A DNA stretch of 64,000 bases. Origin: an uncultured Candidatus Saccharibacteria bacterium (GTDB lineage: Bacteria; Patescibacteriota; WWE3; 2-01-FULL-39-13). This document shows, piece by piece, positions 30,137 through 50,676 of the stretch (its first letter is position 1; every line of letters begins with the position of its first letter). A model generated the notes under the pieces. It ran no database searches. It saw nothing but the letters and a program-made list of their open reading frames with translations, and was not told where the DNA came from. The position numbers and the translations under genes are program-made. Where the stretch lies: assembly GCA_965230915.1 (NCBI GenBank), contig OZ246395.1, positions 792,935-856,934 on the forward strand. Direction: 5' to 3'.

Positions 30137-30517
30137 ATGCTAATATCATGCGCATATATAACTATCGCAGTTATTAATCGCACACTACGGAGAACTAAAA
30201 TGAGTTTCCCACACAACCCACATCTGGAATTTGCGGCAATTCTGCTGATGACCATTTCAGGTCTGATGGACGGGGTAGCCCTTTTTCAAATAAAAAGGTT
30301 AATATCGCCATTTGGCCTGATAAGCAGAGGTTTGCTAGGTTGTATTGTAGCGGTCCTATATTTGATTTCCGGGGGAAGCCTTCTCGGTACAGTAGTCTGG
30401 GCTATGCTAGGGCTAACTAAATTTGTTGCCTATCTAGCAATTTATGCGAAATTGTTTTACTTCAAAAAGCCGATCATATACCAGATTAGCGACCAAGAAA
30501 CGCTGATCGAACTATAA
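30137..30517 (+). CDS. Small 3-TM membrane protein (the real start may be the internal Met near 30200)
   Basis: ORF with hydrophobic segments, followed by a terminator. Confidence 0.35.
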   Translation: MLISCAYITIAVINRTLRRTKMSFPHNPHLEFAAILLMTISGLMDGVALFQIKRLISPFGLISRGLLGCIVAVLYLISGGSLLGTVVWAMLGLTKFVAYLAIYAKLFYFKKPIIYQISDQETLIEL

Positions 30518-32279: not shown

Positions 32280-32353
32280 AAAAGCACCCTACGAAAGTAG
32301 AAAATAAATTCCTAAATTCGTAGGGTTCGACACTGCGCTTTAGCGTTTACTTA

Positions 32354-32494
32354 TGCGTGCTTTATGAGCACATAGACAAGCATGCCTGCGACAATCACCA
32401 ACTCGGCAATGCAAAACCACAAGCCAACGTTGGTCTCAACCTCAATTTCGTGAATCTGGTTGAGAGCTTTGCGTCTCATCCACTGATACATGTG
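32354..32494 (-). CDS. Possible 46-aa single-TM micro-protein (MYQWMRRKALNQIHEIEVETNVGLWFCIAELVIVAGMLVYVLIKHA)
   Basis: I translated this from the minus strand by hand. It is not in the ORF track because it is under 60 aa. It lies 25 nt downstream of 32520..32963 in the same high-GC patch. Confidence 0.25.
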
Positions 32495-32519
32495 GCAGCT
32501 CCCTTTCCTTATGGCTGCT

Positions 32520-32963
32520 TTACTTTCGTAAATTACTCAGATAAAGCTCGGGCGCTTCACCTGCCTCCACGCGAAATGGTTTTTCACCATCCCAGCCGCA
32601 ATGCCATGCACCGCCTTCGTCCGGAAGCTCATACAACACTACGGGCCAATAGTTGCTGAACCCCTCCTTCTGGCTGGGCCAATATTTGTGCATGATGCGC
32701 AAAGTTTCGTCGTCCGGAATCGCAAAGACAGGAGTACCGTCGCCTGGGTCAAACCATGCGTGGGCGACGTCTTTAGTCTGGATTAGAAACTCAACTTCGC
32801 TCGGGTCTTCCAAGCTTGGCTCTATGACTTCTTCGAGCACGGCAACAAGACAGTGATCATCATTGCCCGCCAGCGCAGTCGCAGTCTGAGCAAAAAATGG
32901 TGTTACTACCAAACTCACGGCTGTAGCAATTCCAAAAACAGCGTTCAAAATACCCTTAGACAT
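32520..32963 (-). CDS. Small secreted protein in a high-GC patch
   Basis: 147 aa with a signal peptide. The promoter TTGACT-17-TACAAT is on the minus strand (-35 at 33038-33043, -10 at 33015-33020). Confidence 0.45.
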   Translation of the reverse strand: MSKGILNAVFGIATAVSLVVTPFFAQTATALAGNDDHCLVAVLEEVIEPSLEDPSEVEFLIQTKDVAHAWFDPGDGTPVFAIPDDETLRIMHKYWPSQKEGFSNYWPVVLYELPDEGGAWHCGWDGEKPFRVEAGEAPELYLSNLRK

Positions 32964-33073
32964 TTCTTAATCCTCTCTTCATACAGTTTATTGGGTTGGT
33001 ATAGAACGGGCGTAATTGTAGGGTTTAAAATACTATAAGTCAACCGCTAACGGGCTTTTTGTAGATTGCTCTA

Positions 33074-33700
33074 TTAGTCGATAAAGTGAATCGACTTTCT
33101 TATGTTCTCGGCATTTTCATTTTCAGCATATTCAACCACGATCCATTTATCGGTCGATGGAGACTGCATTAAATAAATTTTATTTACCCCAGTTGTCGGA
33201 CCAGATTTAACTTCATATGCTGCCATATAAGCATCTTTTGTACCTTCAATTTTAACTTTCTCTGGTTCATTCACAAAATCGCCACCCATACTTGGATCCA
33301 TTTCATCTAATTTTAATTGGATAAACTGAATCGGATTATCAATTTCAACTGGCTTATAAATTACCAAAGCAGAAAATTCCTGACCTACCCGAGGTTCAAC
33401 GGCCATAATATAGTGGTCGCCATTATCTTGAATAAAATAACCAGGATGCATAAAGTAATAACCTTCACCATCGACTTGTTCCCAATCTTTGTAAACTGCG
33501 AGGTCGGCTGGAAGTTCTTCGCCCTCTGCAAGTTCGATTTCTTCTTCGTTATTTGTATTTTGAGATTCTGTTTCTTGCATCGATCCGCCAAATTCAGAAT
33601 CGATTGGTTGCTGCATTTTGTTGCGAGCATTCATGTAATATAAGATGCCGGAGATTCCAGCTATTAGGACTATTATGAGGAGCAGGTTAATTGTTTTCAT
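33074..33700 (-). CDS. N-terminally anchored extracytoplasmic protein, unknown function
   Basis: 208 aa with one TM segment and native low-GC composition. Confidence 0.45.
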   Translation of the reverse strand: MKTINLLLIIVLIAGISGILYYMNARNKMQQPIDSEFGGSMQETESQNTNNEEEIELAEGEELPADLAVYKDWEQVDGEGYYFMHPGYFIQDNGDHYIMAVEPRVGQEFSALVIYKPVEIDNPIQFIQLKLDEMDPSMGGDFVNEPEKVKIEGTKDAYMAAYEVKSGPTTGVNKIYLMQSPSTDKWIVVEYAENENAENIRKSIHFID

Positions 33701-33792
33701 GCCCTCATCCTACATGGATAATTTGAATGAGTAAACCCTAAAACTAAACCATATATACAAGTACAAATATTTTAACTATTATTAAATTTAAG

Positions 33793-34203
33793 ATGAGTGC
33801 TGATCTGGCTGAACATGAACTCCCCTTTCTAGCAAAATGGCCTAAATGGCTTCGATGGCTTTTATTCCTACCATTAGGAATTATTTCTGGTATGTTAGGA
33901 TCAGCCTTTATTCATCTAACACAATGGTTTATGGGCTTTGGTAGCGAGACTCCATATGTAGTTTTTCTAAGTAATGGAGCTTTTGGATATGTCTTCTTAT
34001 ATGTCTCTTCTATAATGGCTCCTAAAAATCATTTTACCGTATCAATAATTTTATTTGCGTTATCTTGCATACTATATGGGATATCATTCCTAAGCATATT
34101 AAATGGTAACTACGCAGTTAGTATTATAGTTGACTCATTAGGTCTTATAGGAGCCCTTTTAGGCTCAGGCATTGTAGTTTATTCTTTAAAAGAAAGTGAA
34201 TAA
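33793..34203 (+). CDS. Small 4-TM membrane protein
   Basis: 136 aa hydrophobic ORF. Confidence 0.4.
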   Translation: MSADLAEHELPFLAKWPKWLRWLLFLPLGIISGMLGSAFIHLTQWFMGFGSETPYVVFLSNGAFGYVFLYVSSIMAPKNHFTVSIILFALSCILYGISFLSILNGNYAVSIIVDSLGLIGALLGSGIVVYSLKESE

Positions 34204-34220
34204 ACTTTTATCATACCTGC

Positions 34221-34345
34221 TATAATTTCCCTATAGCAATGATCCTTATGACACGGGGGAGCTAGTTCGAAAACTGAGACATAAGCTGCTTCGGGCTAAC
34301 AGCCGAAGAAGCGAGGTGGCACCGCGCAATTTAGCGTCCTCGCAA
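34221..34345 (+). promoter_or_regulatory. Candidate T-box leader (Asp specifier) upstream of aspS
   Basis: A TATAAT box at 34221-34226. A Stem-I-like helix CTTATG...CATAAG has GAC-A at the specifier position (34278-34281). A strong hairpin at 34286-34313 follows, then the T-box sequence AGCGAGGTGGCACCGCG at 34310-34326. This folds as a canonical antiterminator: A1 GAGG/CCUC, 7-nt bulge UGGCACC, A2 GCGC-AAUUUA-GCGU. I could not find a clear downstream terminator or SD sequestrator. Confidence 0.45.
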
Positions 34346-34432
34346 GTTTATCAATTTACTTGATAATCATGCGAAGAAAGGCTTGGCCACAACCTATTCC
34401 ACTTCTCAGAGATTATCCAAAACAAGTTATTT

Positions 34433-35722
34433 ATGGAACGAACACACATAAAAGATGTTCCAACAATGGTCGGTGAGACCGTAAAAATATCTGGCTTCGT
34501 ACACGCCATTCGAAACCAGGGCAGTATCAAGTTTATTATTTTGCGCGATGTGACCGGGCTTATACAGTCGGTCATTTTAAAGAGCTCCCCTGCTTTTGCA
34601 GTGGTCGATGAACTTTCGCTAGAATCAGTCATCGAAATTGAAGGCTTGGCTAAAGCTGAAAAACAGGCTCCTGGAGGGTTCGAAATTGAAGCTCAGAATA
34701 TAAATATTCTTTCAAAAGCTGCGCCCGAACTCCCTATTCCAGTTGTTACTGAAAAAGGTGGAGAGGAAACCAACCAGCCACAAAGATTAGATTATCGCTG
34801 GATCGATTTGCGAAAACCTGAAAATACAAAGATTTTTAAAGTTTGGACTGCGCTTGAAAGAGGAGCACGCGATTATTTTTTGAACAATGGATTCATTCAA
34901 TTTTATTCTCCGGCATTAATGAATGCGGCATCCGAAGGTGGATCTGAATTTTTTACTGTAAATTATTTTGATAGAAAAGCATATCTATCTCAGTCTCCAC
35001 AATTTTACAAACAAATGGCGATGGCTGCCGGCTTTGAAAAAGTTTTTGCAGTAGGGCCAGTTTTTAGAGCTGAACCATCTTTTACTACTCGTCATATGAC
35101 TGAATTTACCGGCTGGGACTTTGAAATCAGCTATGTAAATTCTCATCACGATGTTATGGATGCCGAAGAAGGAATGTTAGTCGAAGGTTTTAAAGCATTA
35201 AAAGAAACTGAAATGCCAGATTTGGAAATTCCTAGTCGTCCTTTTCCGAGATTAACAATGGTCGAAGCTAAAAAGAAATTAGCCGAAGCTGGAATTAAAT
35301 CTGAAAAAGAACACGACCTTTCACCAGAAGAAGAAAGAGAAATTTGCCGAATCGTAAAAGAAGAAACAGCTAGTGATTTTGTTTTTGTAACCGATTACCA
35401 TATTTCGATTCGACCTTTCTATCATATGCGACACGCTGATATGCCTGATCGTACAAAGAGCTTTGACCTTTTATATAAAGGTATTGAAATTACAACCGGT
35501 GCTCAACGAGAACATCGCGTTGGAATTTTAGAAAAACAGGCGGTTGAAAAAGGCGTCGAACTTGAAAGTATCAAAGAGTACATTAACTTCTTTAGATTTG
35601 GAATGCCTCCACATGGAGGTGGTGGTATAGGACCTGGAAGAATTGTTATGCAGCTTTTAGATTTGGCGAATATTCGCGAAGCGACTTTCTTGCCAAGAGA
35701 TGTTAAGAGATTGACACCTTGA
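34433..35722 (+). CDS. aspS: Aspartyl-tRNA synthetase, archaeal/eukaryal short type (possibly non-discriminating)
   Basis: 429 aa with an N-terminal OB anticodon-binding domain. Class II motif 2 (FRAEPSFTTRHMTEF) and motif 3 (GGGGIGPGRIVM) are present. The bacterial GAD insertion is absent. Confidence 0.85.
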   Translation: MERTHIKDVPTMVGETVKISGFVHAIRNQGSIKFIILRDVTGLIQSVILKSSPAFAVVDELSLESVIEIEGLAKAEKQAPGGFEIEAQNINILSKAAPELPIPVVTEKGGEETNQPQRLDYRWIDLRKPENTKIFKVWTALERGARDYFLNNGFIQFYSPALMNAASEGGSEFFTVNYFDRKAYLSQSPQFYKQMAMAAGFEKVFAVGPVFRAEPSFTTRHMTEFTGWDFEISYVNSHHDVMDAEEGMLVEGFKALKETEMPDLEIPSRPFPRLTMVEAKKKLAEAGIKSEKEHDLSPEEEREICRIVKEETASDFVFVTDYHISIRPFYHMRHADMPDRTKSFDLLYKGIEITTGAQREHRVGILEKQAVEKGVELESIKEYINFFRFGMPPHGGGGIGPGRIVMQLLDLANIREATFLPRDVKRLTP

Positions 35723-35729
35723 TTTTTGA

Positions 35730-35784
35730 GCAAGGATTTTTTATGCGGTTAGCCATGCTGCTAACAAGCGTAAAAAATCCTTGC
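35730..35784. terminator. Nested bidirectional terminator (14-bp outer stem GCAAGGATTTTTTA/TAAAAAATCCTTGC enclosing a TTAGC/GCTAA inner hairpin)
   Basis: Between convergent aspS and the cupredoxin gene. Seen in the sequence. Confidence 0.6.
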
Positions 35785-35825
35785 GAAAACCCTGGCTAAC
35801 CACGCAAAAAACTTTGTTCAAAGAA

Positions 35826-36218
35826 TTATTTGTCTGTAACGATCACACTCCCCTTCATATTTGGATGAAGGCTACAAGTGTAAGTAAAAGATCCAACCTT
35901 ATTAAAAGTTAATATTTTTGATTCACCGGGATTTAATATTCCTGTATACCAACTGCTATCATCAGAAGTCGCACTATGCTGAACCGAATCATTGTTTGTC
36001 CATTTTATAGTTTGTCCAACCTTAATTGTTACCACCGATGGGCCAAAAGCAAAATTTTGAATGTTTACGTCAGCGTCAGCTTTTTGCTCGACCTGCTCTG
36101 ACTGCGAATTATTTTGTTCTACATTACTCGAAGACATTTGAGGCCTCATTTTAAAATACCAATATCCTGCTCCACCTAAAACTATTAACAAAATTAGAAC
36201 AATAAGCAATTTATTCAT
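35826..36218 (-). CDS. Membrane-anchored type-1 blue copper protein (amicyanin/plastocyanin-like cupredoxin)
   Basis: 130 aa. The C-terminal copper site CSLHPNM matches the amicyanin C-x2-H-x2-M spacing, with an upstream His at VQHSAT. Confidence 0.7.
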   Translation of the reverse strand: MNKLLIVLILLIVLGGAGYWYFKMRPQMSSSNVEQNNSQSEQVEQKADADVNIQNFAFGPSVVTIKVGQTIKWTNNDSVQHSATSDDSSWYTGILNPGESKILTFNKVGSFTYTCSLHPNMKGSVIVTDK

Positions 36219-36304
36219 AGTTTCATTTTATGCATTCATTCACAAAGGTCAAATGAACTTGCAATTTATTTCGGTTCAAATATACTTAACTAAGTTAAAT
36301 AACT

Positions 36305-36778
36305 TTGTTAATGAATTATATGGATCAAGATCAGACCTTAAGAATGCATAATTTAGGAATAATTCAAGGATACTCATATCGAGTTCTAGAAAATCATTTA
36401 GGCATCTTACTTAAAAAATATAATTTGCTAATTCCTGAATGGAAATTACTCGGGCTCATATTCGAAAACCCCAATTTAAAAATCACCCAACTCGCAAGCC
36501 AACTAAAAGTAGAAATTCCATTTATAACCCGTCTTGTAAATTCACTTACAAAAAAGCAAATGGTAAAAAAAGTGACACGCAACAAAGATTTACGAATACA
36601 GCTAGTTGAACTTACAGAAGAAACAAAAGTATTATTGCCTAAACTAGAAATCGAAGTCGGGATATTAATGAGAAATTTATTAGAAGGAATAACTTCGGAA
36701 GAACGAAGCGCATACATGAATGTATTACAAACTGTTATTAATAATGCAAAAAAAATAGAAAGATCAGAAGAACTTTAA
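36305..36778 (+). CDS. MarR-family transcriptional regulator
   Basis: 157 aa with a central wHTH ([28 protein letters not shown]). Confidence 0.7.
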
Positions 36779-36824
36779 AGCCATACTAAGTGTAATAAAT
36801 TTTATTTTAGGAGGTGATATACAA

Positions 36825-37502
36825 GTGAAAAAAGGAAACACAACAATGTACATTGTAATCGGAGTTGTTGCAGTTGCAGTTATAGCTCTTCTATTTATGA
36901 GAAACAATAATTCAGCAATGAAAGATAATTCAGATTCAATGAAGTCAGATGATTCAGCAATGATGAACGACGACTCTATGAATGATGATTCAATGATGGA
37001 TGATTCAATGATGGACGATTCGAGTTCAGATAATTCAAATAATAATATGGAAAATGGCGTAATGGTTGGAGGAGCAATGATGACTCCAGATAAAGATATA
37101 GTCGATAATGCTGTAAATTCTAATGACCATACAACTTTAGTTGCAGCTGTTAAGGCCGCAGGTTTAGTTGATACATTAAAGGGAGATGGACCATTTACGG
37201 TTTTTGCTCCAACAAATGATGCGTTTAACAAACTTCCTGCTGGTACTGTAGAAGATTTAGTTAAGCCAGAAAATAAAGATATGTTAACTAAAATTCTTAC
37301 TTACCATGTAGTATCTGGAAGATATACATCAGATATGTTGAAAGATGGAATGCAGTTAAAAACTGTTGAAGGAGAAATGCTAACTTTCAATGAGAAAGAT
37401 GGCCAGTGGTGGATTAATGGATCAGCAATGATCACAACCGCTGATGTAATTTCTAGCAATGGAGTTACATACGTAATAGATACTGTTTTGATGCCTAAGT
37501 AA
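36825..37502 (+). CDS. Membrane-anchored fasciclin (FAS1) domain protein with an N-terminal DDSMM low-complexity repeat
   Basis: FAS1 core [21 protein letters not shown]...LTYHVVSG. Confidence 0.8.
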
Positions 37503-37673
37503 CGCCTTCGCTAACGCTACGGCTATCTTTTTTGACTATATCCTTCAGATAAATCAAAAAAGTAATTCCTTGGCTAACGCGAAATAAGTTAGGTAATACA
37601 GCTGGCTCTTCTGCAGGAGAGCTGGCTAAGTGCGTGATTAAAATTCCCAAACTAACGTTATAATCTATTAGTT

Positions 37674-38141
37674 ATGAACCTCACTGAAAGAATTGTTGAT
37701 TTTTTAACCAAAAATAAAGTTGAATACAAACTTTCTCACCATGAAGCCGTTCGCACAAGCGAAGAGGCGGCAAGGGTACGCGGGAATAAACCTGAAGAAG
37801 GCGCAAAGGCGTTGGTTTTTTGGGCCGATAGCTCACCTGTTCAAATTGTTATTCAAGGAAATTTAAAAGTCGACAAAGAAAAATTCAAAAATTTATTCGG
37901 TTTTAGTAAATTAAAAATGGTTTCTGCCGAAGAATTAAAACAAGTTAGTTCTGTTGAACCGGGGGCTGTTCCTCCATTTGGAAATCTTTTCGAGCCACCG
38001 ATAAAAGTGTTCTGCAACGAAGGATTTAGTGATACCATTGAATTTAATGCCGGTGACCACCGCATAAGTATCCAGATGAAATATAAAGATTGGCTGGATC
38101 TAGTAAATCCTAGTATTGGTGACTATGGAGAAAGAGCATAA
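37674..38141 (+). CDS. YbaK/ProX-type aminoacyl-tRNA deacylase domain protein
   Basis: 155 aa with the GAVPPFG motif. A TATAAT box lies 9-11 nt before the ATG, so the leader is short. Confidence 0.65.
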   Translation: MNLTERIVDFLTKNKVEYKLSHHEAVRTSEEAARVRGNKPEEGAKALVFWADSSPVQIVIQGNLKVDKEKFKNLFGFSKLKMVSAEELKQVSSVEPGAVPPFGNLFEPPIKVFCNEGFSDTIEFNAGDHRISIQMKYKDWLDLVNPSIGDYGERA

Positions 38142-39402
38142 AAGCAAACATAAAGTCCACAAAGTAAAAAAAGAAAATCAATTTTCTGAAGCTTCTACCG
38201 AACAACCGCATGAGAAACCTGTACCCGAGGTAACCCCGCAAATTCAAGAAGTTCATACTGAAAGAATCATAAAGGAGAAAAGCTCTACTGTTCCGATTTC
38301 TGCAACCGAAACTAAAACAGAGACTTTAAGTGTTAAAGAAGAAACAAGCACAGTTCACCATTCACCTAATACTTCGGAACTGGGGCAATTTCCTAAAAAG
38401 TCAAAAGATAAGATAAAGAAAAAAGATCAATTTGTAATACCTTTTTATATTTTTGTACTAGTACTTTTTACTCTATCTTTTGCTATTGGAGGACTGGCAG
38501 CAAAATTTATTCCCAATAATGCATTTGATGCGCTAAAAAGCTTGAATAAGATTTATAAAAACGAACCGGTAGCTGAAGTAGTTGAAGAAGCTACAGTTTC
38601 ATCCATACCAGTTGAACCAATAAATGAAATTGAACCACCTAGAATTTTACAAACTCAACCGCCAGAAATAAGCGCTAAGGCATATGGAATTTACACCTTC
38701 GAAAAAGGCGAATATAAAAAAATGACAGACAAGAATCCTGACGTTATGCTGCCAATGGCATCAGTAACAAAAGTTATGACTGCACTTGTTGCATTAGAAA
38801 ATTATGATTTAGATAAACCGGTTGTAATTCCGGCAAATTGCGTTGGTATAAACGCGAGTAGCGTTGGATTCAGACCAAACGATGTTCTGTCACTTCAAGA
38901 CGTTTTATATGGACTTCTAGTTAAATCAGGTGCAGATGCAGCCTGTGCAATTGCAAACATTGATAACGAAGCTGACTTTATTACAAAAATGAATCAAAAA
39001 GCTGCTGAACTTGGAATGACCAACACCAAATTTACAAATGCGATTGGGTTAGATAATAGTGATGCACATGTTTCAGATATTAACGATTTGAAAATTTTAG
39101 TTACGGCGGCACTAAAATATGGGTCGTTCAGAAAAATTGTTGGAACCGAAGACATTACAATAACTTCTAAATCGACCGGCGCCAGATACAATGTCCGTAA
39201 TACAAATGATTTATTATTCTCGATTCCAGGGACTGTCGGTATTAAAACTGGCTTCACGGACAGTGCAGGAGAATGCCTCGCCTATTTATATCAGAACAAA
39301 GATCAGGAAATATTAATTATTGTTTTGGGGTCGGCTGACCGATTCGGAGATACTTCGAAACTTTTGAATTGGGCTAAAGCTGAACTTTCAGAACAGAATT
39401 AG
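38116..39402 (+). CDS. D-alanyl-D-alanine carboxypeptidase (S11/PBP5 family) with a long disordered N-terminal region and a TM anchor
   Basis: SxxK (ASVTK), an SxN-like motif (KSGAD) and KTG (IKTGFT). Confidence 0.75.
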   Translation: MVTMEKEHKSKHKVHKVKKENQFSEASTEQPHEKPVPEVTPQIQEVHTERIIKEKSSTVPISATETKTETLSVKEETSTVHHSPNTSELGQFPKKSKDKIKKKDQFVIPFYIFVLVLFTLSFAIGGLAAKFIPNNAFDALKSLNKIYKNEPVAEVVEEATVSSIPVEPINEIEPPRILQTQPPEISAKAYGIYTFEKGEYKKMTDKNPDVMLPMASVTKVMTALVALENYDLDKPVVIPANCVGINASSVGFRPNDVLSLQDVLYGLLVKSGADAACAIANIDNEADFITKMNQKAAELGMTNTKFTNAIGLDNSDAHVSDINDLKILVTAALKYGSFRKIVGTEDITITSKSTGARYNVRNTNDLLFSIPGTVGIKTGFTDSAGECLAYLYQNKDQEILIIVLGSADRFGDTSKLLNWAKAELSEQN

Positions 39403-40720
39403 AATTTGAAATTGCCGAACGAATTATTTTATAAATATCGTAATCAAATTTGTTCATTTTTCCGTCATTAACTAAGCACCATTTATCAACTATAAATGTA
39501 CTTTGTCCATTTTCATTCTGTTCTCGAATTTCGATTGAAGTCTCAAAAGGCCAGTCTTCGATCGCGGATTTTTTGAAGGCTTTAGCAAAACGTTTATTAT
39601 ATTCAGCAGGATTTTCTTTGTTTACACACGCCCCATTGCACCGACCCAAGTGATATCTAAAACATGAAGTTACGGCTTTTTCGGTTCCTAAAAGTTTGTT
39701 ACACAAATTATTTTCTGCAGAAACATAATCAAGATTTTCTTTGCATTCTTTGATCGACGAAAAAATTCCCAATAACTTTTCGTTTTTATTAATCTTTATA
39801 CTTTTTACACGTTCAAAATTTGTAGTTAAGTATCCGTTTTCATTTTCTATTTGCTTTAATAAAACCATTTCAGTTTTTCGACGGAGTTTTCTATTATATA
39901 TAGGCATTAATTCTTTTACTAGATCAGATTCAAGAATTAGTGCCGAAATTTCACCTGCTGTTGGAATAGCTTTAATATCATTTATCTGATTGTTGATTCT
40001 CAATTCTTTTGAAGAATCTTTATCGTATAAGTGGCTCTTTACTCGCTTTTTTATATTTTTGCTTTTGCCAACGTAAAGTGGATTTGAATTTTTATCATAG
40101 AAAATATAAACACCAGGACATTCTGGTAAATCACTGATTGTTGATTCATCTAAATCATATGGAATATTCGAATTTTCGATACATCTTAAAATTGCATCGT
40201 TAACGGCTTCTTCTCCTAAATCTTTTTTGGCGTGATCTATAAACTGGTGTAGTACAAAAGCATCATCATAAGCGCGATGGCGGTTTTCACACTCGAACCC
40301 AAAATACTCGATAACTCTAGATAAATTATGCTTTCCCATTTTGGGATACAAGATTCTCGATAGTCTAACAGTACAAAAATACGGATTACTAAATGGTCTA
40401 TCTATTCTGCGAAATTCTGCGCGTATATGTGAAAGGTCAAACGCAACATTGTGTGCAACAAAAACAGCATCACGCAGTATTTCCTCTACTCTATCGGCAA
40501 TTTCATAAAATTCAGGAGCAAATTCTAGTTCATCCGGATTTATGTTCGTGTAATTTTGAATAAAAGGTGAAACGTAAGTATTTGGATTAAGCAGTGACTT
40601 AAATTCATCAACAATTTTCCCATTTTCTACACGTATTATTGCGATTTCAATGATTCTGTCTTTACCTGGATGATACCCAGTGGTTTCAGTGTCCACAAAG
40701 GCATAAGTATTAGGCAGCAT
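39374..40720 (-). CDS. DnaQ-like 3'-5' exonuclease fused to a GIY-YIG nuclease domain with a UvrC-like Cys cluster (Cho-like)
   Basis: Exo motifs FVDTETTG, HNVAFD and HRAYDDA. GIY-YIG: PGVYIFYDKNSNPLYVGKS. The C-terminal cluster has 4 Cys. Confidence 0.75.
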   Translation of the reverse strand: MLPNTYAFVDTETTGYHPGKDRIIEIAIIRVENGKIVDEFKSLLNPNTYVSPFIQNYTNINPDELEFAPEFYEIADRVEEILRDAVFVAHNVAFDLSHIRAEFRRIDRPFSNPYFCTVRLSRILYPKMGKHNLSRVIEYFGFECENRHRAYDDAFVLHQFIDHAKKDLGEEAVNDAILRCIENSNIPYDLDESTISDLPECPGVYIFYDKNSNPLYVGKSKNIKKRVKSHLYDKDSSKELRINNQINDIKAIPTAGEISALILESDLVKELMPIYNRKLRRKTEMVLLKQIENENGYLTTNFERVKSIKINKNEKLLGIFSSIKECKENLDYVSAENNLCNKLLGTEKAVTSCFRYHLGRCNGACVNKENPAEYNKRFAKAFKKSAIEDWPFETSIEIREQNENGQSTFIVDKWCLVNDGKMNKFDYDIYKIIRSAISNSNSVLKVQL

Positions 40721-40793
40721 ATTTTGGAATATATCACGTATGTGCTAAGTAGCCAAACTTTTACCGAAGATACATAAATTGATTGAAACGAAG

Positions 40794-40839
40794 GGGCCGG
40801 ACGCAACTTGTGAAAATTATAAAAAGTTGCGTCCGGCCC
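40794..40839 (-). terminator. Perfect 16-bp stem terminator (GGGCCGGACGCAACTT / AAGTTGCGTCCGGCCC)
   Basis: A U-rich run follows on the minus strand. It terminates transcripts coming from the 41.1-kb region. Confidence 0.7.
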
Positions 40840-41100
40840 AACTGCTAGCGGCGAAGGAGCATAATCAACCTTGCCAGCCAGGGAGGTGAACTTACAAACC
40901 TGGGAAGCGTGGCTTCAGAAACAAATAACGTCGGAACAATCCTTACGCTGGTCTTTCGCGCAAGAATCTTGTTATGCCGTGAGTCAACACGGGGACGACT
41001 CGTTCTTTGAACCATATTAGTCGGCATATCCGCAAAACCTTTCCGCCTTATCGAAGGCTTACAAAAAATCCCAACGCATGTTGAGAATTAGAAATATTTT
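40840..41100 (-). ncRNA. Candidate ~300-nt GC-rich small RNA, or a 3'UTR, of unknown family
   Basis: The region looks about 50% GC by eye in a low-GC genome. The minus-strand promoter TTGATT-17-AAAATA (approximately 41095-41125) and the strong terminator at 40794-40839 delimit it. The only ORF here is a 60-aa Arg-rich frame (40845..41027) of doubtful reality. Confidence 0.3.
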
Positions 41101-41128
41101 AAATTTATTTACAGGAAAATCAATAAGA

Positions 41129-42697: not shown

Positions 42698-42702
42698 AAA
42701 CC

Positions 42703-44244: not shown

Positions 44245-45503
44245 GACTTGATCATTTAAGCCGGAATCTAATTTTAATAGTAACAATATTATTCTTCTTT
44301 TTTGCTGTAGGAGTAGCCACACACCCGGCTTCGGACAACGACGCATCACGTTTAGCTGGAATAATTTCTGTAGCACAAAAAAATATGTTATCGATTGATA
44401 AAACTCCATATAGCAAAGTTGGCGATCGCGTAGTTTATGAAGATATAAGTTATTCCTCAAAACCTCCGGTTCTACATGTAATTACTGGCCTTATTATTAA
44501 AGCAGCGTTTGAAATAAAACCTGCACTTCTTGAAAATAATGTAGCAATATACCGCGCATCTACAATGCTAATAAATACATTTCCGATTGTATTAATATAT
44601 GTATGTTTTTACTTTTTGATGCGTAATTTGAAAATACGAACATTATATGCACATTTGACTTCGTTATTTCTAATATTTGGGACACTTATATTCACATATT
44701 CAAAATACTTAACAAACCATATTTTCGAAGCTTTATTACAAATTACTTTGTTTTTTATTTTAGTAAAGTTCAAAACGACAAAACTAAATTGTGTGTTGAT
44801 TGGAATTTTTATTTCTGCTCTTTTTGCAATTGATATAACAAATGGTGTTATTGTTGTCCCTGCAACAATTTTATGGTTAATGTATTACCACAAAATCAAA
44901 TTTATAGATTTAGTGTGGATATTTTTGGGTGCAGTTCCATTTTTAATAACACATTTTTATTTAAGCTATGTTCAGTTTGAAAATTTTTTGCCTCCACAAT
45001 TATTTCCGGAAACTTACTTATCGTATCCTGGGTCAAAATGGGTCGGTGAATTAAAAGGTTTTGAAGCCCTAGATCAACCATTAATTATCAGATTTTTTAA
45101 TTACACATTCGGAACTCACGGATTATTTTTATATCACCCAATTCTTTTAATTCCATTTTTTATTAAAAAAAACTGGAAAGACCCACTTTGGCTTTATACG
45201 TTTGCCGTAGTCTTGGGATATATATTATTTAATACTGTAATGCAGAAAAATTATGCAGGATCGGCATTTGGACCAAGAAGATTCTTACCTTTGATTCCGA
45301 TTCTTTATTATTTTGTGATTAAAAATTTGGGTGAGTACCGACAAACATTTAGCAGAGAAATTAGGATTTTAATATTAATTGCATTTGCTTCGACGGCCTT
45401 TATTTCTTTTATTGGCTATAAAAACCCATGGAATAATTATTCTGTGAAAATTAACTCGCATGAAGTTTACTTCCCTATTCTCTACACTATAGAGCATCAC
45501 TAA
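44241..45503 (+). CDS. GT-C-like polytopic membrane protein (putative glycosyltransferase)
   Basis: 420 aa with many TM segments. It overlaps the upstream gene by 4 nt, as expected for an operon. Confidence 0.45.
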   Translation: MRLDHLSRNLILIVTILFFFFAVGVATHPASDNDASRLAGIISVAQKNMLSIDKTPYSKVGDRVVYEDISYSSKPPVLHVITGLIIKAAFEIKPALLENNVAIYRASTMLINTFPIVLIYVCFYFLMRNLKIRTLYAHLTSLFLIFGTLIFTYSKYLTNHIFEALLQITLFFILVKFKTTKLNCVLIGIFISALFAIDITNGVIVVPATILWLMYYHKIKFIDLVWIFLGAVPFLITHFYLSYVQFENFLPPQLFPETYLSYPGSKWVGELKGFEALDQPLIIRFFNYTFGTHGLFLYHPILLIPFFIKKNWKDPLWLYTFAVVLGYILFNTVMQKNYAGSAFGPRRFLPLIPILYYFVIKNLGEYRQTFSREIRILILIAFASTAFISFIGYKNPWNNYSVKINSHEVYFPILYTIEHH

Positions 45504-45509
45504 AAGGCC

Positions 45510-45561
45510 GAGGTTTCGAATTAGCTTTTATTAATGAACTATTTGGCTAATTCGAAACCTC
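45510..45561. terminator. Perfect 16-bp bidirectional terminator (GAGGTTTCGAATTAGC / GCTAATTCGAAACCTC)
   Basis: Seen between convergent genes. Confidence 0.7.
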
Positions 45562-45571
45562 AATTTGGTCT

Positions 45572-45783
45572 TTACGAATATCTTTGCATCGAATATGGAT
45601 GCCGCGGGCACATGTGGCAATCCATTGCGCGAATGCAAATTGTTCCAGGTTGATGCAAGCACTCTTCAACTTTGACACTATCAGGGCTGATAATTCCGAT
45701 AGGTATACCCGATGGTCGTGTTGCATATGGCGCATCTTCAGCATCTAAAACAGCTTCCTTAGGCAAATTTATCGTCAACAACA
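45572..45783 (-). CDS. 70-aa Cys/His-rich putative metal-binding protein in a high-GC patch
   Basis: The true start is a minus-strand ATG preceded by AAGGAGG (MLLTINLPKE...). The pattern C-x7-C-x5-C-x2-C plus three His is present. It has its own promoter and terminator. Confidence 0.4.
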
Positions 45784-45876
45784 TGAGATCCTCCTTCGAG
45801 GGGTGAAAAAAGGAAACGGATAGTGTAAGTGTAAAGACCCACAAATATTCTAGCAAAAATGTTATAAAATTTAGAA

Positions 45877-46707
45877 GTGGGAAAATTTCAAATTATCATT
45901 TTAATTTTAATAGTTTTTGTTTTAGTAGCTTTTATTGCAACATATGCTCGCAAACCAACAAACATTCGCGACTGGGAAGTCGGAATGGGAAAATTTCCTG
46001 AAATACAAATTTCGGGAGATGGAAAAAATATCACAATAAAAAATCTTCGCAATTATAACTACTCAAAAGAAGGCATAATATCACAAGATTATTTAGAAAA
46101 AACTTACAATTTAGATAACTTAGAAAAAGTCTGGTTCTTAATAGAGCCCTTCTCTTTTTGGGACGGCATAGCTCATACATACTTTATTTTTGATTTTACC
46201 GACCAAGAGCCTATCGCTTTTTCGGTTGAAGCACGTCGCGTAAAAGGCTCAAAATATAATGCATTTGCTGGAATATTTAATCAATACGAATTAATTTATA
46301 CATGGGGAACCGAACACGATTTTACTGGTCGGAGAATTTATAAAGATAATGGAAATGTTTATATGTATCCGTTAAAAGTTAACAAGGATTTTGCTCAAAA
46401 ATTATTTTTAGAAAGTGCAAAATCTACGGAGGAACTTCGAAACAACCCACGTTTTTACAATACGATTACAAGTAACTGCACAAATAATTTGGCAAAAATC
46501 GCAAACGAAGTAAAACCTGGATCAATTCCATTTCACTATGCGTTATATTTTCCGGGATATTCTCCCAAACTTTTATATAACTTAGGATATTTTGATAGCA
46601 ATTTGAGTTTTGATGAGCTAAAGGAAAAATCTTATATTTCGAATATCGTTAACAAAATTTATAATGATCCAAATTTCACACAAGAATTAAGGGAAAATTT
46701 AAATTAA
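45877..46707 (+). CDS. N-terminally anchored protein, unknown function (possible DUF4105-like)
   Basis: 276 aa with one TM segment and an SNCTNN motif. Family assignment is uncertain. Confidence 0.4.
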   Translation: MGKFQIIILILIVFVLVAFIATYARKPTNIRDWEVGMGKFPEIQISGDGKNITIKNLRNYNYSKEGIISQDYLEKTYNLDNLEKVWFLIEPFSFWDGIAHTYFIFDFTDQEPIAFSVEARRVKGSKYNAFAGIFNQYELIYTWGTEHDFTGRRIYKDNGNVYMYPLKVNKDFAQKLFLESAKSTEELRNNPRFYNTITSNCTNNLAKIANEVKPGSIPFHYALYFPGYSPKLLYNLGYFDSNLSFDELKEKSYISNIVNKIYNDPNFTQELRENLN

Positions 46708-46794
46708 AAAGCTTGGGAACAGAAAGTGATCTGAAAAAATGGCGAAATAAATCTCGCGAAAATTTCAGGACTTTCTGTTCCCGTTATCAAACTT

Positions 46795-47583
46795 CTAGTC
46801 TGTGTTCTCCAGCGCCGGCAAGTACAACTTGGACTGCACGACTCGCGTGTAGCTGAAGTAACCTCCCATCGGGCTGTAGCTCTGTTCGAGCACGCGGATC
46901 GTAACTGTGTACAATCCATCATCCTCGAAAATCAAAAGCATCGGGTCGGTCGCCACACTGCCACCTACTGGAACCGTAACATCCTTCAAATCAAAATGGA
47001 TGTCATTATCGGCCCCCGGGGGGTCAACAGTAACGACGACTTCTTCGGTGAATGGCTTGGGTCCCTGATTTGTGAGCCAAACTTCAAAGGTCATGGCCTC
47101 GTTGGTGCGGTCGATCTCGTGAACCAAAAAAGGCGTAACGCCTTCTTTCTTAACCAAAGGAACCTCGCGCGCCAACAAGGTGGACTCACCTGCACGCAGG
47201 GTAAAACCTACGTAAACATCGTCCATAATAAACTCCGGATAAACCGTCGCCGTATATGCGCCGGTCGGGCACACAATACCCTGTTCATCCTTGGCGTCGT
47301 ACTGGCATTCCTCGGGCCAATCCAAAAAGGAAAGATCGGTCTGCAATACGATTGGGTCACCTGCATCGTTCCCGCCACTAAAGGCAATGACCGCGGGTTG
47401 CCCCTCGACCATGTAGGCCTTGCCGTTGGCAAGATTAATCGAAGATGGCCCAGGGCCTACAACTTGTGCAGCAACCCCCTTACACCAGCAGATATACAAA
47501 AATCCGCCGGCCAGAAAGGCAATTAGGACACAAGCTCGGATAAATCGGTAACGCATTTCCATCGTTCTCTCCTTCATACACAT
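46795..47583 (-). CDS. Secreted protein with very high GC3 (foreign codon usage), unknown function
   Basis: 262 aa with a signal peptide. The terminal codons almost all end in G or C. The minus-strand promoter CCTATAGTGTTGACT-18-TAATTAT is near 47650-47690. Confidence 0.5.
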   Translation of the reverse strand: MCMKERTMEMRYRFIRACVLIAFLAGGFLYICWCKGVAAQVVGPGPSSINLANGKAYMVEGQPAVIAFSGGNDAGDPIVLQTDLSFLDWPEECQYDAKDEQGIVCPTGAYTATVYPEFIMDDVYVGFTLRAGESTLLAREVPLVKKEGVTPFLVHEIDRTNEAMTFEVWLTNQGPKPFTEEVVVTVDPPGADNDIHFDLKDVTVPVGGSVATDPMLLIFEDDGLYTVTIRVLEQSYSPMGGYFSYTRVVQSKLYLPALENTD

Positions 47584-47691
47584 GAACCGCTAGATATTTG
47601 AATATAACTGTACAAAATGAAAAAGCTGAATTAGCCCTTTCTGGGGCATAATTATGTCAGAAAATCGCGGGAAGTCAACACTATAGGCTGA

Positions 47692-48414
47692 CTATTCTTC
47701 CGGGTGAGGCTCAATAATTTCTGATTTTATCTTATGCATAAGTTCGCGAGTACGTATATCACCCAAATCATTTACTACAAATTTAATCGTGAAAATTGCC
47801 CCTAAAATTGACCCTATAAAATCTGCTAAAAGATCGTTCATAGTGTCGTGATAAGCGTCTTCGACCAAAGATCCCTGATATACAACCCAATCTGGAAAGT
47901 AATTTATTCGCAAAAATTCAAGGCCATATTCTATAATCTCCCAAATTCCACCAATCCCCATGGCAATTAATATAGTAAGAAGAAAAAGGGTTCGTTTAGA
48001 AGCCAATAGTCGACCCGTTCGATTCATTGTAAAAATAACTGTATAAGAAATAGCTGCTATTAGGAGCACCATTGTAAAATGGGCGAATTTATCGAAATAT
48101 GGCGTGGTGTAATATAAGTCGAGAATCTCACCCAAATAGTATTGAATAAAAACAATAAAAAATAGCATTAATTCAATCTCAATAGGGAAGTCTTTAATAC
48201 GGTCTTTAGTAAAAACTGCAGGTGCAGCAATTACAAGTGCTGCGACCAAGGTCATAAAACCAATTTCCCAATCGCCTGAAATAATTGTGATAACGGAGAC
48301 TACAAATACGAAAACTCGCATAAACCACAATAATATGATTTTCCAGGTTTCCACATTTTTGGATTCATTTGGCTTTATAAATATCTTTTTTATCGGCTCT
48401 ATAATGATTTTCAT
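47692..48414 (-). CDS. Polytopic membrane protein, unknown function
   Basis: 240 aa with 6-7 TM segments. Confidence 0.45.
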   Translation of the reverse strand: MKIIIEPIKKIFIKPNESKNVETWKIILLWFMRVFVFVVSVITIISGDWEIGFMTLVAALVIAAPAVFTKDRIKDFPIEIELMLFFIVFIQYYLGEILDLYYTTPYFDKFAHFTMVLLIAAISYTVIFTMNRTGRLLASKRTLFLLTILIAMGIGGIWEIIEYGLEFLRINYFPDWVVYQGSLVEDAYHDTMNDLLADFIGSILGAIFTIKFVVNDLGDIRTRELMHKIKSEIIEPHPEE

Positions 48415-48453
48415 AGCGACTTAATTATATATAGGTAATGAAATTTCTCAAAT

Positions 48454-48972
48454 TTGACTTGTGGTAGATTTCGTATCACAATTATTATAAATATGAAAAA
48501 TTTCCTGTCCAAAGTCCTGTTAGCAACTCTTGTAATTTTTTCTTTATCAGCAGGTTCTGCATTAGCAGCTTCCCTTACATTAACAAAAATCGGGTCACTA
48601 GATGTAGGTGGAAAGAAAATCTCAGGCCAATGGACATATGTATCCACAAATCCAACACTATATGGAACCGCTCCAGCTGGAGCTAGAGTTACCATCGTAA
48701 TCGACGGTACCGAAGCTCGCGAAGTAGCTGACGAAGAAGGTAATTGGCACCACTATTCAGAAAAGCTTACAAAAGGTAATCATGATATTAATATTTCCAT
48801 CGACGGCGAATCATTTGCGTTTAAGCTAAATACAGGCGGAGAAGCAGTCGAAACTACAGCTTCAGCAAATGGAGTTCCAGTTACTGGATCCTCTGATGTA
48901 TTTTTATACATGGCAATTTCTTCCGTGCTACTAATCGCAGGAGGATCACTCTTCTTACATAAAAGAAGATAA
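48454..48972 (+). CDS. Secreted protein with a sortase-like sorting signal (VPVTG, hydrophobic stretch, KRR)
   Basis: 172 aa with a signal peptide. The C-terminus is NGVPVTGSS...LLIAGGSLFLHKRR. Confidence 0.5.
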   Translation: MTCGRFRITIIINMKNFLSKVLLATLVIFSLSAGSALAASLTLTKIGSLDVGGKKISGQWTYVSTNPTLYGTAPAGARVTIVIDGTEAREVADEEGNWHHYSEKLTKGNHDINISIDGESFAFKLNTGGEAVETTASANGVPVTGSSDVFLYMAISSVLLIAGGSLFLHKRR

Positions 48973-48981
48973 TCTCAGATT

Positions 48982-49938
48982 TTAATTGGCTAATATATAT
49001 TTGTTAACTTCCCAAACTATAAATAGTGCGTAAATAGAAAGTAATACTATTCCTTCTGCTCGTGATAAGTTATTTTTCGATTTAGTAAATATAAAAAAAA
49101 GCCCCAAGCCAGTTAAGGTAAATATAAATGTTGGAATAAAATTCGTAGTAGTTAGAATTTCCCCGGTATTTAGTAATGTGAAAATTCCAAATAATAATGT
49201 ATTTGTGGCAGCGGAGCCCAAATAGTCTCCAAATGCGACTTCTTTCTTTTTAAGGATTACTGACTTTACCGCTAAAGTAAGCTCGGGCAGATTAGTTCCC
49301 AATGATAGAGCCATAAGGCTAATCAAATATGGGGAAATATCTAAAAGTTCTGCAAATATTACGGTTTTATTAACGATTATATTACTAGATATAAAAACGA
49401 GAATTATTCCCCCAATGATTCTAAAAATATCGTTAAGTGAATATGAATTTAAATTAAAAAGTTTTGTATTTCCTAGGTTTAGTATCCCTTCCCGTTTTAG
49501 AACGAAGAATATCAAAATAAAATATATACCTAAAAGTAATAGACCTTCTTCGTAAGTGACTTTTTTATCGAGTATCAAAATAGATGGAGCAAGTATTACA
49601 AAAAGGCAAAATAAGATTGTAAATTGGTCGAGATTATGATCAATTCGAATTCCATTGCCCAATGCGGCTAAAAGCGGAATTACCAACAAAAACAGCAAGA
49701 TTATTCCACCAAGTAAGTTTCCTACAAAAATTTCAGCCCTACCTTCAGCAATTGATGCTAAACCAACCGCAAATTCAGGTGTTGAAGTTAAGATTCCCAG
49801 AACAATAAACGAAACGGCGAATGATGATACTTTGATATTTTTGGATATTTTATCGATGGATTTAACAATGAGCCCTGTCCCAAGCCATATAAGGACAAAA
49901 GCAAAAATATAAATGGACAGGTCTAATATTAAGAGCAT
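48982..49938 (-). CDS. CaCA-family sodium/calcium antiporter (YrbG-like)
   Basis: 318 aa with two alpha-repeat motifs (GNGIRIDHN / GTNLPELT). Confidence 0.8.
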   Translation of the reverse strand: MLLILDLSIYIFAFVLIWLGTGLIVKSIDKISKNIKVSSFAVSFIVLGILTSTPEFAVGLASIAEGRAEIFVGNLLGGIILLFLLVIPLLAALGNGIRIDHNLDQFTILFCLFVILAPSILILDKKVTYEEGLLLLGIYFILIFFVLKREGILNLGNTKLFNLNSYSLNDIFRIIGGIILVFISSNIIVNKTVIFAELLDISPYLISLMALSLGTNLPELTLAVKSVILKKKEVAFGDYLGSAATNTLLFGIFTLLNTGEILTTTNFIPTFIFTLTGLGLFFIFTKSKNNLSRAEGIVLLSIYALFIVWEVNKYILAN

Positions 49939-50039
49939 TATATAAATTATAACTGGAAAAATTTATTTAGGGAGTAAAAATTTGCTAGCAGGAAAACTGG
50001 ATAGAAAGAAACACTTTCCAGTTTTCCTGCTACTGCGGG

Positions 50040-50225
50040 TTAGGTTGCCTTACCGGCCTTAGCTGTAGCTAACGGATACCAAATATCCCCGGTAGGACCT
50101 CTGCCCCATCTGGAGTTAAGAACATACGGGCCTTGGGCAGCTTGTGCCACAGGCTTATCCCTTGCTTCCTTTGCCTCATCAGACACATTCCGATCACTGT
50201 CTTTTCCATTTGTCGCCGTTGACAC
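50040..50225 (-). CDS. Small basic protein (about 61 aa, GTG start after AAGGAGA) in a high-GC patch
   Basis: I chose the GTG start from the SD position. The region looks GC-richer than its flanks by eye. Confidence 0.25.
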   Translation of the reverse strand: MSTATNGKDSDRNVSDEAKEARDKPVAQAAQGPYVLNSRWGRGPTGDIWYPLATAKAGKAT

Positions 50226-50321
50226 TTGTTTCTCTCCTTCGAGAATTGATCGACTCAAACCCACTGGTTTAAGTTTGTATATTTTAGCACAATTAAATAC
50301 CTCCGCCACACCATACTATAG

Positions 50322-50349
50322 GTTGACATCCTGGGTTTTTGTCTTATAC
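50322..50349 (+). promoter_or_regulatory. Promoter TTGACA-16-TATACT preceded by CATACTATAGG
   Basis: Seen in the sequence. It drives the small ORF at 50377. Confidence 0.5.
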
Positions 50350-50376
50350 TTATGCGCAATTGGATTGGGACGGAAA

Positions 50377-50574
50377 GGAATGACCATGAACGCCTTGCTT
50401 CGTTTGCTTGGGAAACCTCAGACGGATAAAGTAGGCAATGAATTTCCGTACCATATTATCGACCACCAAGGCCAGACCTGCGTGGTCAACTCAAAAACGG
50501 GCGAAATATTAAGGCCAAAAAAAGGCGAATCGCTAAACGAACTAATTGCCCGTTTTGAAGCCAAGACAAAATAG
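50377..50574 (+). CDS. Small 65-aa protein (MTMNALLRLLGKPQ...)
   Basis: Internal Met of ORF 50275..50574. It lies downstream of the promoter. Confidence 0.3.
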   Translation, partial: GMTMNALLRLLGKPQTDKVGNEFPYHIIDHQGQTCVVNSKTGEILRPKKGESLNELIARFEAKTK

Positions 50575-50676
50575 ACGGAACCTATCCTGTTCCCCCATTT
50601 GTCCCAATCCAAGGCTTCTTTAAAACAACAAGGCCTATAATCTTTTTAAACTTTTTTGTATAATTCTCAATAATAA

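Follow-up and report, generated by a model that had tools for sequence, protein, structure and literature searches.

The stretch of DNA analysed here, 64,000 nucleotides of contig OZ246395.1 (positions 792,935 to 856,934; hereafter the window), holds a minority of short genes that are much richer in G and C than the genes around them. The window as a whole has a GC content of 0.37. Its majority genes, which we call native, encode SecDF, YceG, a ComM-like ATPase, RecJ, an archaeal-type Asn/Asp-tRNA synthetase (AsnRS), a D-Ala-D-Ala carboxypeptidase, PMT-like glycosyltransferases, endonuclease V and MgtE, and those of their homologues that are named by source come from Candidatus Daviesbacteria, Woesebacteria, Roizmanbacteria and the ‘Patescibacteria group’. 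Judged by these genes, the host is a small-genome, Microgenomates-type member of the Patescibacteria, or CPR (candidate phyla radiation).

Open reading frames (ORFs) were mapped greedily and GC was calculated per codon position. GC at third positions (GC3) was 0.270 ± 0.032 in native ORFs (n=52), bearing out the uniformly AT-rich housekeeping genes described in the initial annotation of this DNA. Against the native mean, 14 ORFs stood out (z = +3.4 to +10.8). These cover all four short patches that the annotation had described as GC-richer than their flanks, each of which proved to be so, together with 40845-41027, 52976-53359 and 30137-30517, which lie beyond those it had noted, and five genes of a ‘10 kb block’ at 18772-28937. 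The GC profile, taken in 200-nt windows, moves between ~0.30 and ~0.50 in abrupt steps. Per-gene GC3 and codon-usage clustering, the check that the initial annotation had proposed, gave a nearly clean split when run on the window, with ORFs falling into two classes that hardly overlap by a codon-usage log-likelihood ratio; the weakest outliers, 30137-30517 and 45572-45784, scored ~0.

Third positions in the GC-rich class are A 0.17, C 0.28, G 0.27 and T 0.28, compared with A 0.36, C 0.15, G 0.12 and T 0.37 in native genes, A-ending codons being halved and GC3 lying at ~0.5-0.6. All three codon positions are atypical, with values such as 0.58/0.40/0.60 for first, second and third positions. The high GC3 spans the entire coding sequence of each GC-rich gene. 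The 80-nt flanks upstream of these genes have a near-native GC of 0.29-0.44, the intergenic spacers beside them 0.35-0.39 compared with 0.31-0.34 at native genes, and the spacers that separate adjacent GC-rich genes only 0.35-0.41. GC enrichment ends where the coding sequence ends. Translational selection of the kind seen in highly expressed genes is an unlikely source of this usage, since the increase is as large for the G-ending codons of Lys, Glu and Gln as it is for C-ending codons; the usual pattern of highly expressed genes in AT-rich bacteria differs from such a joint rise.

Three of the GC-rich genes, all on the minus strand, could be followed into relatives. A 147-aa secreted protein is encoded at 32520-32963 (GC 0.51, GC3 0.51, z=+7.4); its signal peptide ends in ...ATALA, followed by G, and the remainder is predicted to form a single Cys-bracketed beta-sandwich domain with the motif FDPGDG...HKY...W.C. 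An ORF for a 46-aa peptide with a single transmembrane (TM) segment (32351-32491, minus strand; GC3 0.62, z=+10.8; ribosome-binding site AAGGAAAGGGA) is predicted to share its transcription unit, which is preceded by a promoter-like TTGACT-17-TACAAT at 33015-33043 (minus strand; a consensus match only, 10/12) and closed by a terminator hairpin at 32286-32326 (minus strand; 10-bp outer stem, then a U-rich tail), convergent with RecJ. In L011 and L015 the corresponding spacing is too small for the 46-aa ORF, which is only a putative coding sequence. The second gene, 45572-45784, encodes a cytoplasmic-looking protein of 70 aa with the four-Cys pattern C-x7-C-x5-C-x2-CP (GC 0.44, GC3 0.38, z=+3.4), and is the weakest of the four patches noted initially. 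It is divergent from a gene of the Lnb_N (DUF4105) family, its four-Cys pattern is conserved and it has no signal peptide. The AAGGAGG Shine-Dalgarno (SD) motif and perfect terminator that the initial annotation gave to this gene are both there, the former at 45790-45796, 5 nt ahead of the ATG, the latter as a perfect 18-bp hairpin with a 20-nt loop at 45508-45563 (minus strand); the ‘own promoter’ corresponds to an 8/12 hexamer match that falls under our scan threshold. The third gene, 46795-47583 (GC 0.52, GC3 0.60, z=+10.3), encodes an exported protein of 262 aa (probably 255 aa, with a start at 47562), which starts with a signal or anchor and continues with a predicted pair of beta-sandwich domains. 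As noted initially, G or C is the third base of nearly all its terminal codons (13 among the final 14 sense codons), and a nested hairpin terminator of −33.9 kcal/mol follows at 46709-46794 (minus strand).

The relatives available to us are fragments of four or five lineages, one of them, a JGI contig, known by its gene order and two protein sequences. A word-index search with the 262-aa protein returned a single homologue, P0002 (50% identity), encoded on a JGI contig of 21.8 kb (3300050046), where it adjoins the Lnb_N orthologue in the gene order of the window; its identity ranged over 50-54%. The same contig carries a homologue of the 147-aa protein (P0132, 33% identity) that is convergent with RecJ, and an 85-aa gene at the position of 30137-30517. 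Further DNA of relatives came from an Lnb_N search and contig look-ups; scans of metagenomes and genomes with the native neighbour genes returned distant relatives only, without synteny. In L011/L012, where the flanks are 80% (RecJ), 86% (AsnRS) and 62% (Lnb_N) identical to those of the window, a 72-aa 4-Cys gene (GC 0.52-0.53) is divergent from Lnb_N, and in L011 a gene for a 160-aa protein, homologous to the 147-aa protein at 29% identity, adjoins the homologue of 33074-33700. L013, with flank identities of 51-63%, has a 70-aa 4-Cys gene (GC 0.50, GC3 0.46) flanked by the two genes that also flank it in the window, and encodes a 247-aa protein homologous to the 262-aa protein at 27-30% identity. 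In L015 the protein P0131, 39% identical to the 147-aa protein, is encoded by a gene that converges on RecJ (73% identity) as in the window, and L017 carries a 4-Cys gene (GC 0.47) upstream of an Lnb_N gene with a GC of 0.35. The distant fragments L016, L018 and L019 (Lnb_N 51-53%) lack these genes, and their only outliers are spurious-looking ORFs of 43 and 49 aa in L016.

Flank identities thus amount to 73-80% for RecJ, 86% for AsnRS and 55-62% for Lnb_N, while the patch genes have diverged more (29-39% in the 147-aa family, 27-54% in the 262-aa family) and without proportion to the divergence of their flanks. The four members of the 147-aa family are about equidistant (29-39%). Since these are positional orthologues with neighbours that are 55-86% identical, the three patch genes would predate the corresponding splits, and the 147-aa, 4-Cys and 262-aa genes are, as far as their sequences and positions tell, ancestral to the subclade defined by that range of housekeeping identity.

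The composition of these genes is shared between lineages as well as their positions. GC3 in the 147-aa family is 0.51, 0.57 and 0.46 in three lineages; the L011 homologue gives 0.53 for the full 160-aa ORF call and 0.57 for a 135-codon part, compared with 0.31 in L011 RecJ, and the L015 homologue 0.46, next to a RecJ of 0.37. Across four lineages the 4-Cys genes have a GC of 0.46-0.53 compared with 0.32-0.38 in Lnb_N. Third positions of the GC-rich class in L011 (A 0.19, C 0.23, G 0.28, T 0.30) resemble those of the window, and when relative synonymous codon usage is compared between the two genomes, r is 0.69 for their GC-rich classes, 0.93 for the native ones and ~0 across classes. The codon regime is common to both, although most GC-rich genes of L011 lack homology to those of the window. 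At the divergence of the flanks (55-86% identity), where synonymous sites are taken to have turned over several times, neutral amelioration should have erased any excess of GC3 brought by a donor; yet the excess persists, and we do not take it for leftover donor composition.

The 4-Cys gene (67-72 aa) and Lnb_N/DUF4105 form a divergent pair in four lineages (window 45572-46707, L011 9686-10816, L013 4171-5325, L017 77-1218). In the rearranged neighbourhood of L011 the pair stays joined, between RecJ and the 147-aa homologue. This arrangement suggests that the two are linked functionally or in regulation, and offers a concrete functional lead.

The same class of gene makes up most of the ‘10 kb block’ (18772-28937, minus strand), where five genes with a GC3 of 0.51-0.59 (18772-19905, 23053-23730, 24009-25715, 25962-27185 and 27825-28937, all on the minus strand) encode exported proteins with N-terminal signals or anchors. 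The middle of the block is occupied by two tandem paralogues of native composition on the same strand (20290-21594, GC3 0.30; 21608-22870, GC3 0.23), whose products of 434 and 420 aa are 43% identical to each other and carry Tat-like RRxFL signals; they have no Pfam family, and no homologue of the pair was seen in L011. The block is thus a mosaic of the same GC-rich class broken by AT-rich genes, and the position of 20290-22870 between GC-rich genes indicates that the effect acts per gene and is not regional. The block proteins 24009-25715, 27825-28937 and 25962-27185 are mutually paralogous, with matches to E=6e-26. In the local ORF set a profile of the 147-aa family matches repeated domains in 24009-25715 (E=6e-8) and 27825-28937 (E=1e-4), which together with the paralogy in the block indicates at least four GC-rich genes with one Cys-bracketed domain. 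The 639-nt spacer between two of the GC-rich block genes (27186-27824) is unusually long and contains tandem 63-nt repeats (27439-27501 and 27504-27566, 75% identical); no Rfam family matches it.

At the locus of the block L011 has conserved flanks and different, non-homologous GC-rich genes (GC3 0.44-0.54). The GC-rich genes peculiar to L011 (2960-7086 and 15253-15738), without homology to those of the window, encode an SH3_3 protein of 440 aa that has an anchor at its N terminus, a signal-peptide protein of 375 aa that has Pro/Thr-rich linkers and repeated Cys-containing domains, a protein of 210 aa that looks cytoplasmic, and a UCP032817-like, Cys-rich protein of 161 aa.

No GC-rich protein has a Pfam family and none matches a PHROG. 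Pfam domain scans, which covered all but four of the ORFs in the window, left 13 of 13 outliers without any family as against 16 of 48 natives (p=1e-5). An N-terminal signal or anchor, called by a crude hydrophobicity rule and not by SignalP, is present in 8 of the 14 outliers and in 11 of the 52 native ORFs (odds ratio 5, p=0.017). The association between export and GC3 is moderate, and orphan status tracks GC-richness better than export does. Within the window it is true, as stated earlier, that each of the GC-rich patches codes for a secreted or small protein, but exported proteins are also found among genes of native composition, 11 in all, including DUF11, fasciclin, cupredoxin, beta-lactamase-like and Lnb_N proteins, and export alone is therefore no predictor of GC-richness. 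One further exported protein, of 172 aa (48454-48972), has a weak match to Big_13, an immunoglobulin-like (Ig-like) family, and a C-terminal hydrophobic anchor; it combines a high GC at second positions (0.46) with a native GC3 (0.25), values that uncouple amino-acid composition from codon regime in native exported proteins.

Signal peptides or anchors are carried by the 147-aa and 262-aa proteins and by five block proteins, and in the 147-aa and 262-aa families AXA-type cleavage sites are conserved in the orthologues. Residues invariant in the 147-aa family are C38, F59, D75 (in FGDG), H92, Y94, Y105, P107, W120 and C122. AlphaFold (AF2) models of the 147-aa and 262-aa proteins are all-beta and of low confidence (predicted local distance difference test, pLDDT, 57 and 51), Foldseek returned weak, generic Ig-like or fibronectin type III (FN3)-like matches only (E>0.01), and sequence searches of the PDB found no relatives. 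The predicted domain, of ~90 residues and all-beta with a (F/W)GDG ... HxY ... Y.V motif, is like the PKD/Ig-like domains of adhesins (PKD, PF00801; PKD_4, PF18911), also in occurring singly, in the 147-aa protein, or as repeats, in block proteins, after a signal peptide. It differs in having no Pfam or PDB sequence match, with PF00801 and PF18911 matching no GC-rich protein at E<=0.1 or E<=0.01, and in the Cys...W.C bracket, which is peculiar to the 147-aa family. On sequence grounds we regard the motif as a resemblance and not as family membership. The extracellular effectors or adhesins proposed initially are a reasonable description of the larger genes, given their AXA signals, shared FGDG...HxY domain and low-confidence models. 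The larger GC-rich proteins are probably exported beta-sandwich proteins, located at the cell surface or adhesin-like.

The remaining outliers are small. A GC-rich (0.50) intergenic element at 40794-41027 (minus strand) comprises a basic 60-aa ORF (40845-41027, GC3 0.49) followed by a perfect 16-bp hairpin (40794-40839); the segment 40780-41075 folds more stably than shuffled sequences (z=-3.3), no Rfam family matches the element, and 40845-41027 may be either the 60-aa ORF or a small RNA that ends in the hairpin. The region 50040-50574, described initially as two small divergent genes, reads as a 61-aa hydrophilic ORF on the minus strand (50040-50225; GTG start, SD GAAGGAG, GC 0.52, GC3 0.42, z=+4.7), with a 16-bp hairpin at 49984-50033, and a 64-aa hydrophilic ORF on the plus strand (50380-50574; SD GGAAAGGA, GC3 0.51, z=+7.4), with a promoter-like TTGACA-16-TATACT at 50323-50350; neither has a signal peptide. 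Outside the patches noted initially lie a 127-aa small membrane protein that is annotated in the NCBI record (52976-53359, minus strand, GC3 0.48), with a 13-bp hairpin at 52896-52945, and a weak outlier upstream of RecJ that encodes a small 3-TM membrane protein (30137-30517, plus strand, GC3 0.41, z=+4.3).

An SD-like motif precedes each GC-rich gene, most weakly at 52976 and 40845, and six of the units have a hairpin of −24 to −34 kcal/mol downstream, while 50380 has a weak one. By these SD-like motifs and downstream hairpins, most GC-rich genes appear to be stand-alone transcription units. Good matches to sigma-70-type promoters are found at 33015-33043, 47651-47678 and 50323-50350; promoter-like sites in the region number 78 compared with 72 ± 9 in shuffled sequences, which is equal to chance expectation. 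The hairpins that close GC-rich units are unusually long, with perfect stems of 10-18 bp and some loops of 14-20 nt, and several have no clear U-tract. Two observations concern native genes. A promoter-like TTGGCT-17-TATATT (40721-40760) ends ~7 nt ahead of the ATG of the RNase_T/GIY-YIG gene 39374-40720, which suggests that its transcript is leaderless or nearly so. At 34204-34700, the 229-nt upstream spacer and first ~270 nt of the AsnRS gene have a GC of 0.41-0.45, above that of the surroundings; neither a T-box nor any other Rfam family matches this stretch, which could be a leader RNA.

We also examined the window for marks of transfer and for RNA genes. Among the scanned ORFs there is no integrase, transposase, reverse transcriptase or phage gene, ARAGORN found no tRNA or tmRNA gene in the window, and no flanking repeats or target-site duplications surround the patches. 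PHROGs and two viral-contig scans gave no matches that would link the genes to phages. A target of a diversity-generating retroelement was likewise not found, there being no reverse transcriptase domain in the scanned ORFs and no pair of template and variable repeats that differ by adenine-specific mismatches. Among 1.8-5.8 billion proteins, clear homologues of the 147-aa and 262-aa proteins are syntenic copies only, and no donor lineage emerged. Absence at the corresponding locus of relatives, which would mark an islet, is seen only for the content of the block (in L011), not for 32520, 45572 or 46795. Structured RNA was considered and rejected, as the whole window contains no Rfam match at gathering scores and a search of 40-54 kb at E<=1 returned one chance-level match outside the patches.

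The patches thus appear, from sequence and position, to be real protein-coding genes of one class and orphans specific to this clade, and their GC-rich composition looks gene-specific and persistent, being either kept in place or repeatedly renewed. We tentatively favour maintenance in place by selection on the coding sequence or mRNA, at a confidence that stops somewhat short of even. On this account at least three genes (147-aa, 4-Cys and 262-aa) would be long-term residents and not recent imports; they would evolve as fast as their neighbours or faster and yet stay GC-richer, the GC-rich regime being a lasting property of each gene, held by a force on its coding sequence or mRNA. The candidate force would be selection on rare-codon usage, on translation speed or on mRNA properties of an exported-protein class, whose products would be exported surface or adhesin-like beta-sandwich proteins or very small Cys-rich or membrane peptides. 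Leftover donor composition and a regional mutational or recombinational effect would both be set aside. A bolder form, that the clade runs two codon regimes and actively holds a minority class of surface and small proteins at a GC3 of ~0.5-0.6 as against ~0.27, we consider doubtful.

Several results weigh against maintenance in place. The L013 homologue of the 262-aa gene has a GC3 of only 0.38 (its neighbours 0.27-0.28), and the JGI homologue is less GC-biased in amino acids, 55 of 82 composition-changing differences being GC-ward in the window copy (p=0.003); such uneven maintenance of GC3 means that decay or replacement is possible in some lineages. Polarizing the amino-acid changes with L013 as outgroup left too few sites to give a direction towards GC. 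The identities of Lnb_N and the 262-aa-like protein, 57% and 30% in L013 and 55% and 54% in the JGI contig, also fit replacement by distant alleles, and the non-homologous content of the block in L011 shows that gene turnover happens. For the ORFs at 40845, 50040, 50380 and 32351 an SD-like motif is the sole sign of coding, and for 52976 it is the NCBI annotation only, the AGGA of that ORF abutting its ATG. That the excess outlasts amelioration is surprising, though the comparison draws on fragments from four or five relatives.

These points bear most directly on recurrent replacement, in which conserved hot spots would be refilled with remote alleles or unrelated cassettes, via natural transformation and recombination in the flanks, from an unsampled pool of ~50-55% GC (GC-richer Patescibacteria, their phages or plasmids, or the cells' own host organism), each copy being young and of donor composition. 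We judge this possible though unlikely. The codon positions do fit a genome of ~52-54% GC with little sign of amelioration under way, the divergence of the patches is disproportionate and far above that of the flanks, the content of the block differs wholly between the window and L011 despite conserved flanks, and the fall of GC3 from 0.60 to 0.38 among lineages of the 262-aa family would be that of copies of different ages. The window moreover encodes a ComM-like protein (6215-7720, with Mg_chelatase/ChlI Pfam domains) for which a role in competence may be supposed, and it has been reported that Patescibacteria commonly have genomic islands (PMC12455944). The near-equal distances within the 147-aa family, on the other hand, fit vertical descent equally well, searches with the 147-aa and 262-aa proteins gave no clear homologue beyond their syntenic copies, and neither viral contigs nor PHROGs match. 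There are no boundaries formed by integrases, tRNAs or repeats, and the intergenic flanks are native-like up to the ends of the coding sequences. Recombination in the flanks would also need donors of the same AT-rich clade, which leaves a GC-rich pool unexplained. Independent and fairly recent horizontal acquisition of effector or adhesin genes from various GC-richer donors, the reading of the initial annotation, is improbable. That all codon positions are atypical, most products exported and all of them orphans without Pfam families would suit it, but for three of the four patches it has not stood up to the comparison with relatives, in which these lie at the same loci with neighbours 55-86% identical; donors, mobility genes and insertion scars were not found, and a single common codon regime speaks against diverse donors.

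A regional rise in GC, by biased gene conversion at recombination hot spots or by a mutational bias linked to transcription, strikes us as scarcely less improbable than such acquisition. Fast-evolving genes for surface proteins are plausible targets of recombination, the codon positions shift together, the enriched stretch corresponds roughly to a transcription unit, and in bacteria GC3 has been proposed to be tied to recombination (PMC4450053). Against it stand the AT-rich genes 20290-22870 within the block, the spacers between GC-rich neighbours that reach only 0.35-0.41, and the single-copy patches, which have no paralogue for conversion. A rise of GC3 from 0.27 to 0.55 also far exceeds the recombination-associated shifts reported for bacteria. 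That the patches are artefacts, whether chimeras or GC-rich non-coding RNAs whose ORFs are spurious, is highly improbable. GC-rich DNA in an AT-rich genome does give long chance ORFs, the smallest ORFs (40845, 50040, 50380 and 32351) have no support from homologues and 40780-41075 folds better than its shuffles, but no Rfam family or tRNA matches, and Cys, Trp and signal peptides are conserved in relatives, besides the paralogue matches at E=6e-26. For the larger genes an artefact is refuted. Assembly chimeras, which the initial annotation had allowed for, are excluded by the junctions of 45572 and 46795, which are 100% identical in independent Logan assemblies (L001-L004) of three runs, together with the same arrangement in relatives.

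If the clade does run two codon regimes, composition would persist beyond neutral amelioration, which would imply that selection acts on rare-codon content or on the composition of mRNAs, as it might in an episymbiont whose host-facing or phage-facing surface proteins formed a translational regulon. Recent transfer is the routine reading of atypical composition, also in surveys of genomic islands in Patescibacteria. In the window the same signal marks genes that appear to have kept their loci through deep divergence; if they have, calls of horizontal gene transfer made from composition would be partly wrong in these genomes, and a gene-specific force on base composition would act outside the amelioration model. 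To our knowledge almost no surface or attachment proteins have been described for this lineage, which is thought to live on other cells, and the gene class amounts to a shortlist of candidates.

Genomic islands have been reported in Patescibacteria, and the ‘novel gene pool’ of islands is credited there to Hsiao et al. 2005, as cited in that survey (PMC12455944). The genes in the window share with islands and islets their atypical composition and codon usage, their bias towards orphans and exported or surface proteins and, for some, a place in a variable block. They differ in being single genes of 0.2-0.8 kb and not multi-gene units, in having no integrase, tRNA or repeat boundaries, and in that three of them are syntenic beyond synonymous saturation and un-ameliorated. 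They are also GC-richer than the host genome, whereas foreign DNA is usually AT-richer than its host. Under the amelioration model for horizontally acquired genes, said to go back to Lawrence & Ochman in 1997, GC3 is predicted to decay to that of the host at the pace at which synonymous sites turn over. The codon-position GC observed here (0.58/0.40/0.60) is that of a gene from a genome of ~52-54% GC placed in one of 37% GC, as in the model; unlike the model, orthologues are still at a GC3 of 0.46-0.60 where their neighbours are 55-86% identical.

The hypervariable metagenomic islands of streamlined bacteria (SAR11 hypervariable region 2, HVR2; Prochlorococcus) encode cell-surface structures. 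A locus between core genes (GT2 ... RecJ) with different exported-protein genes in each lineage, and with products that are probably surface-exposed, is like these islands, but the mini-patches differ from them in being fixed in presence and variable in sequence, and we know of no description of a shared GC-rich codon regime as a feature of the SAR11 or Prochlorococcus islands. By functional analogy only, the genes are like rare-codon regulons such as the bldA/TTA-dependent genes of Streptomyces, in which, as here, a functionally coherent minority draws on codons seldom used in the rest of the genome; that regulon turns on one codon and a known tRNA, whereas in the genes of the window the whole codon table is shifted.

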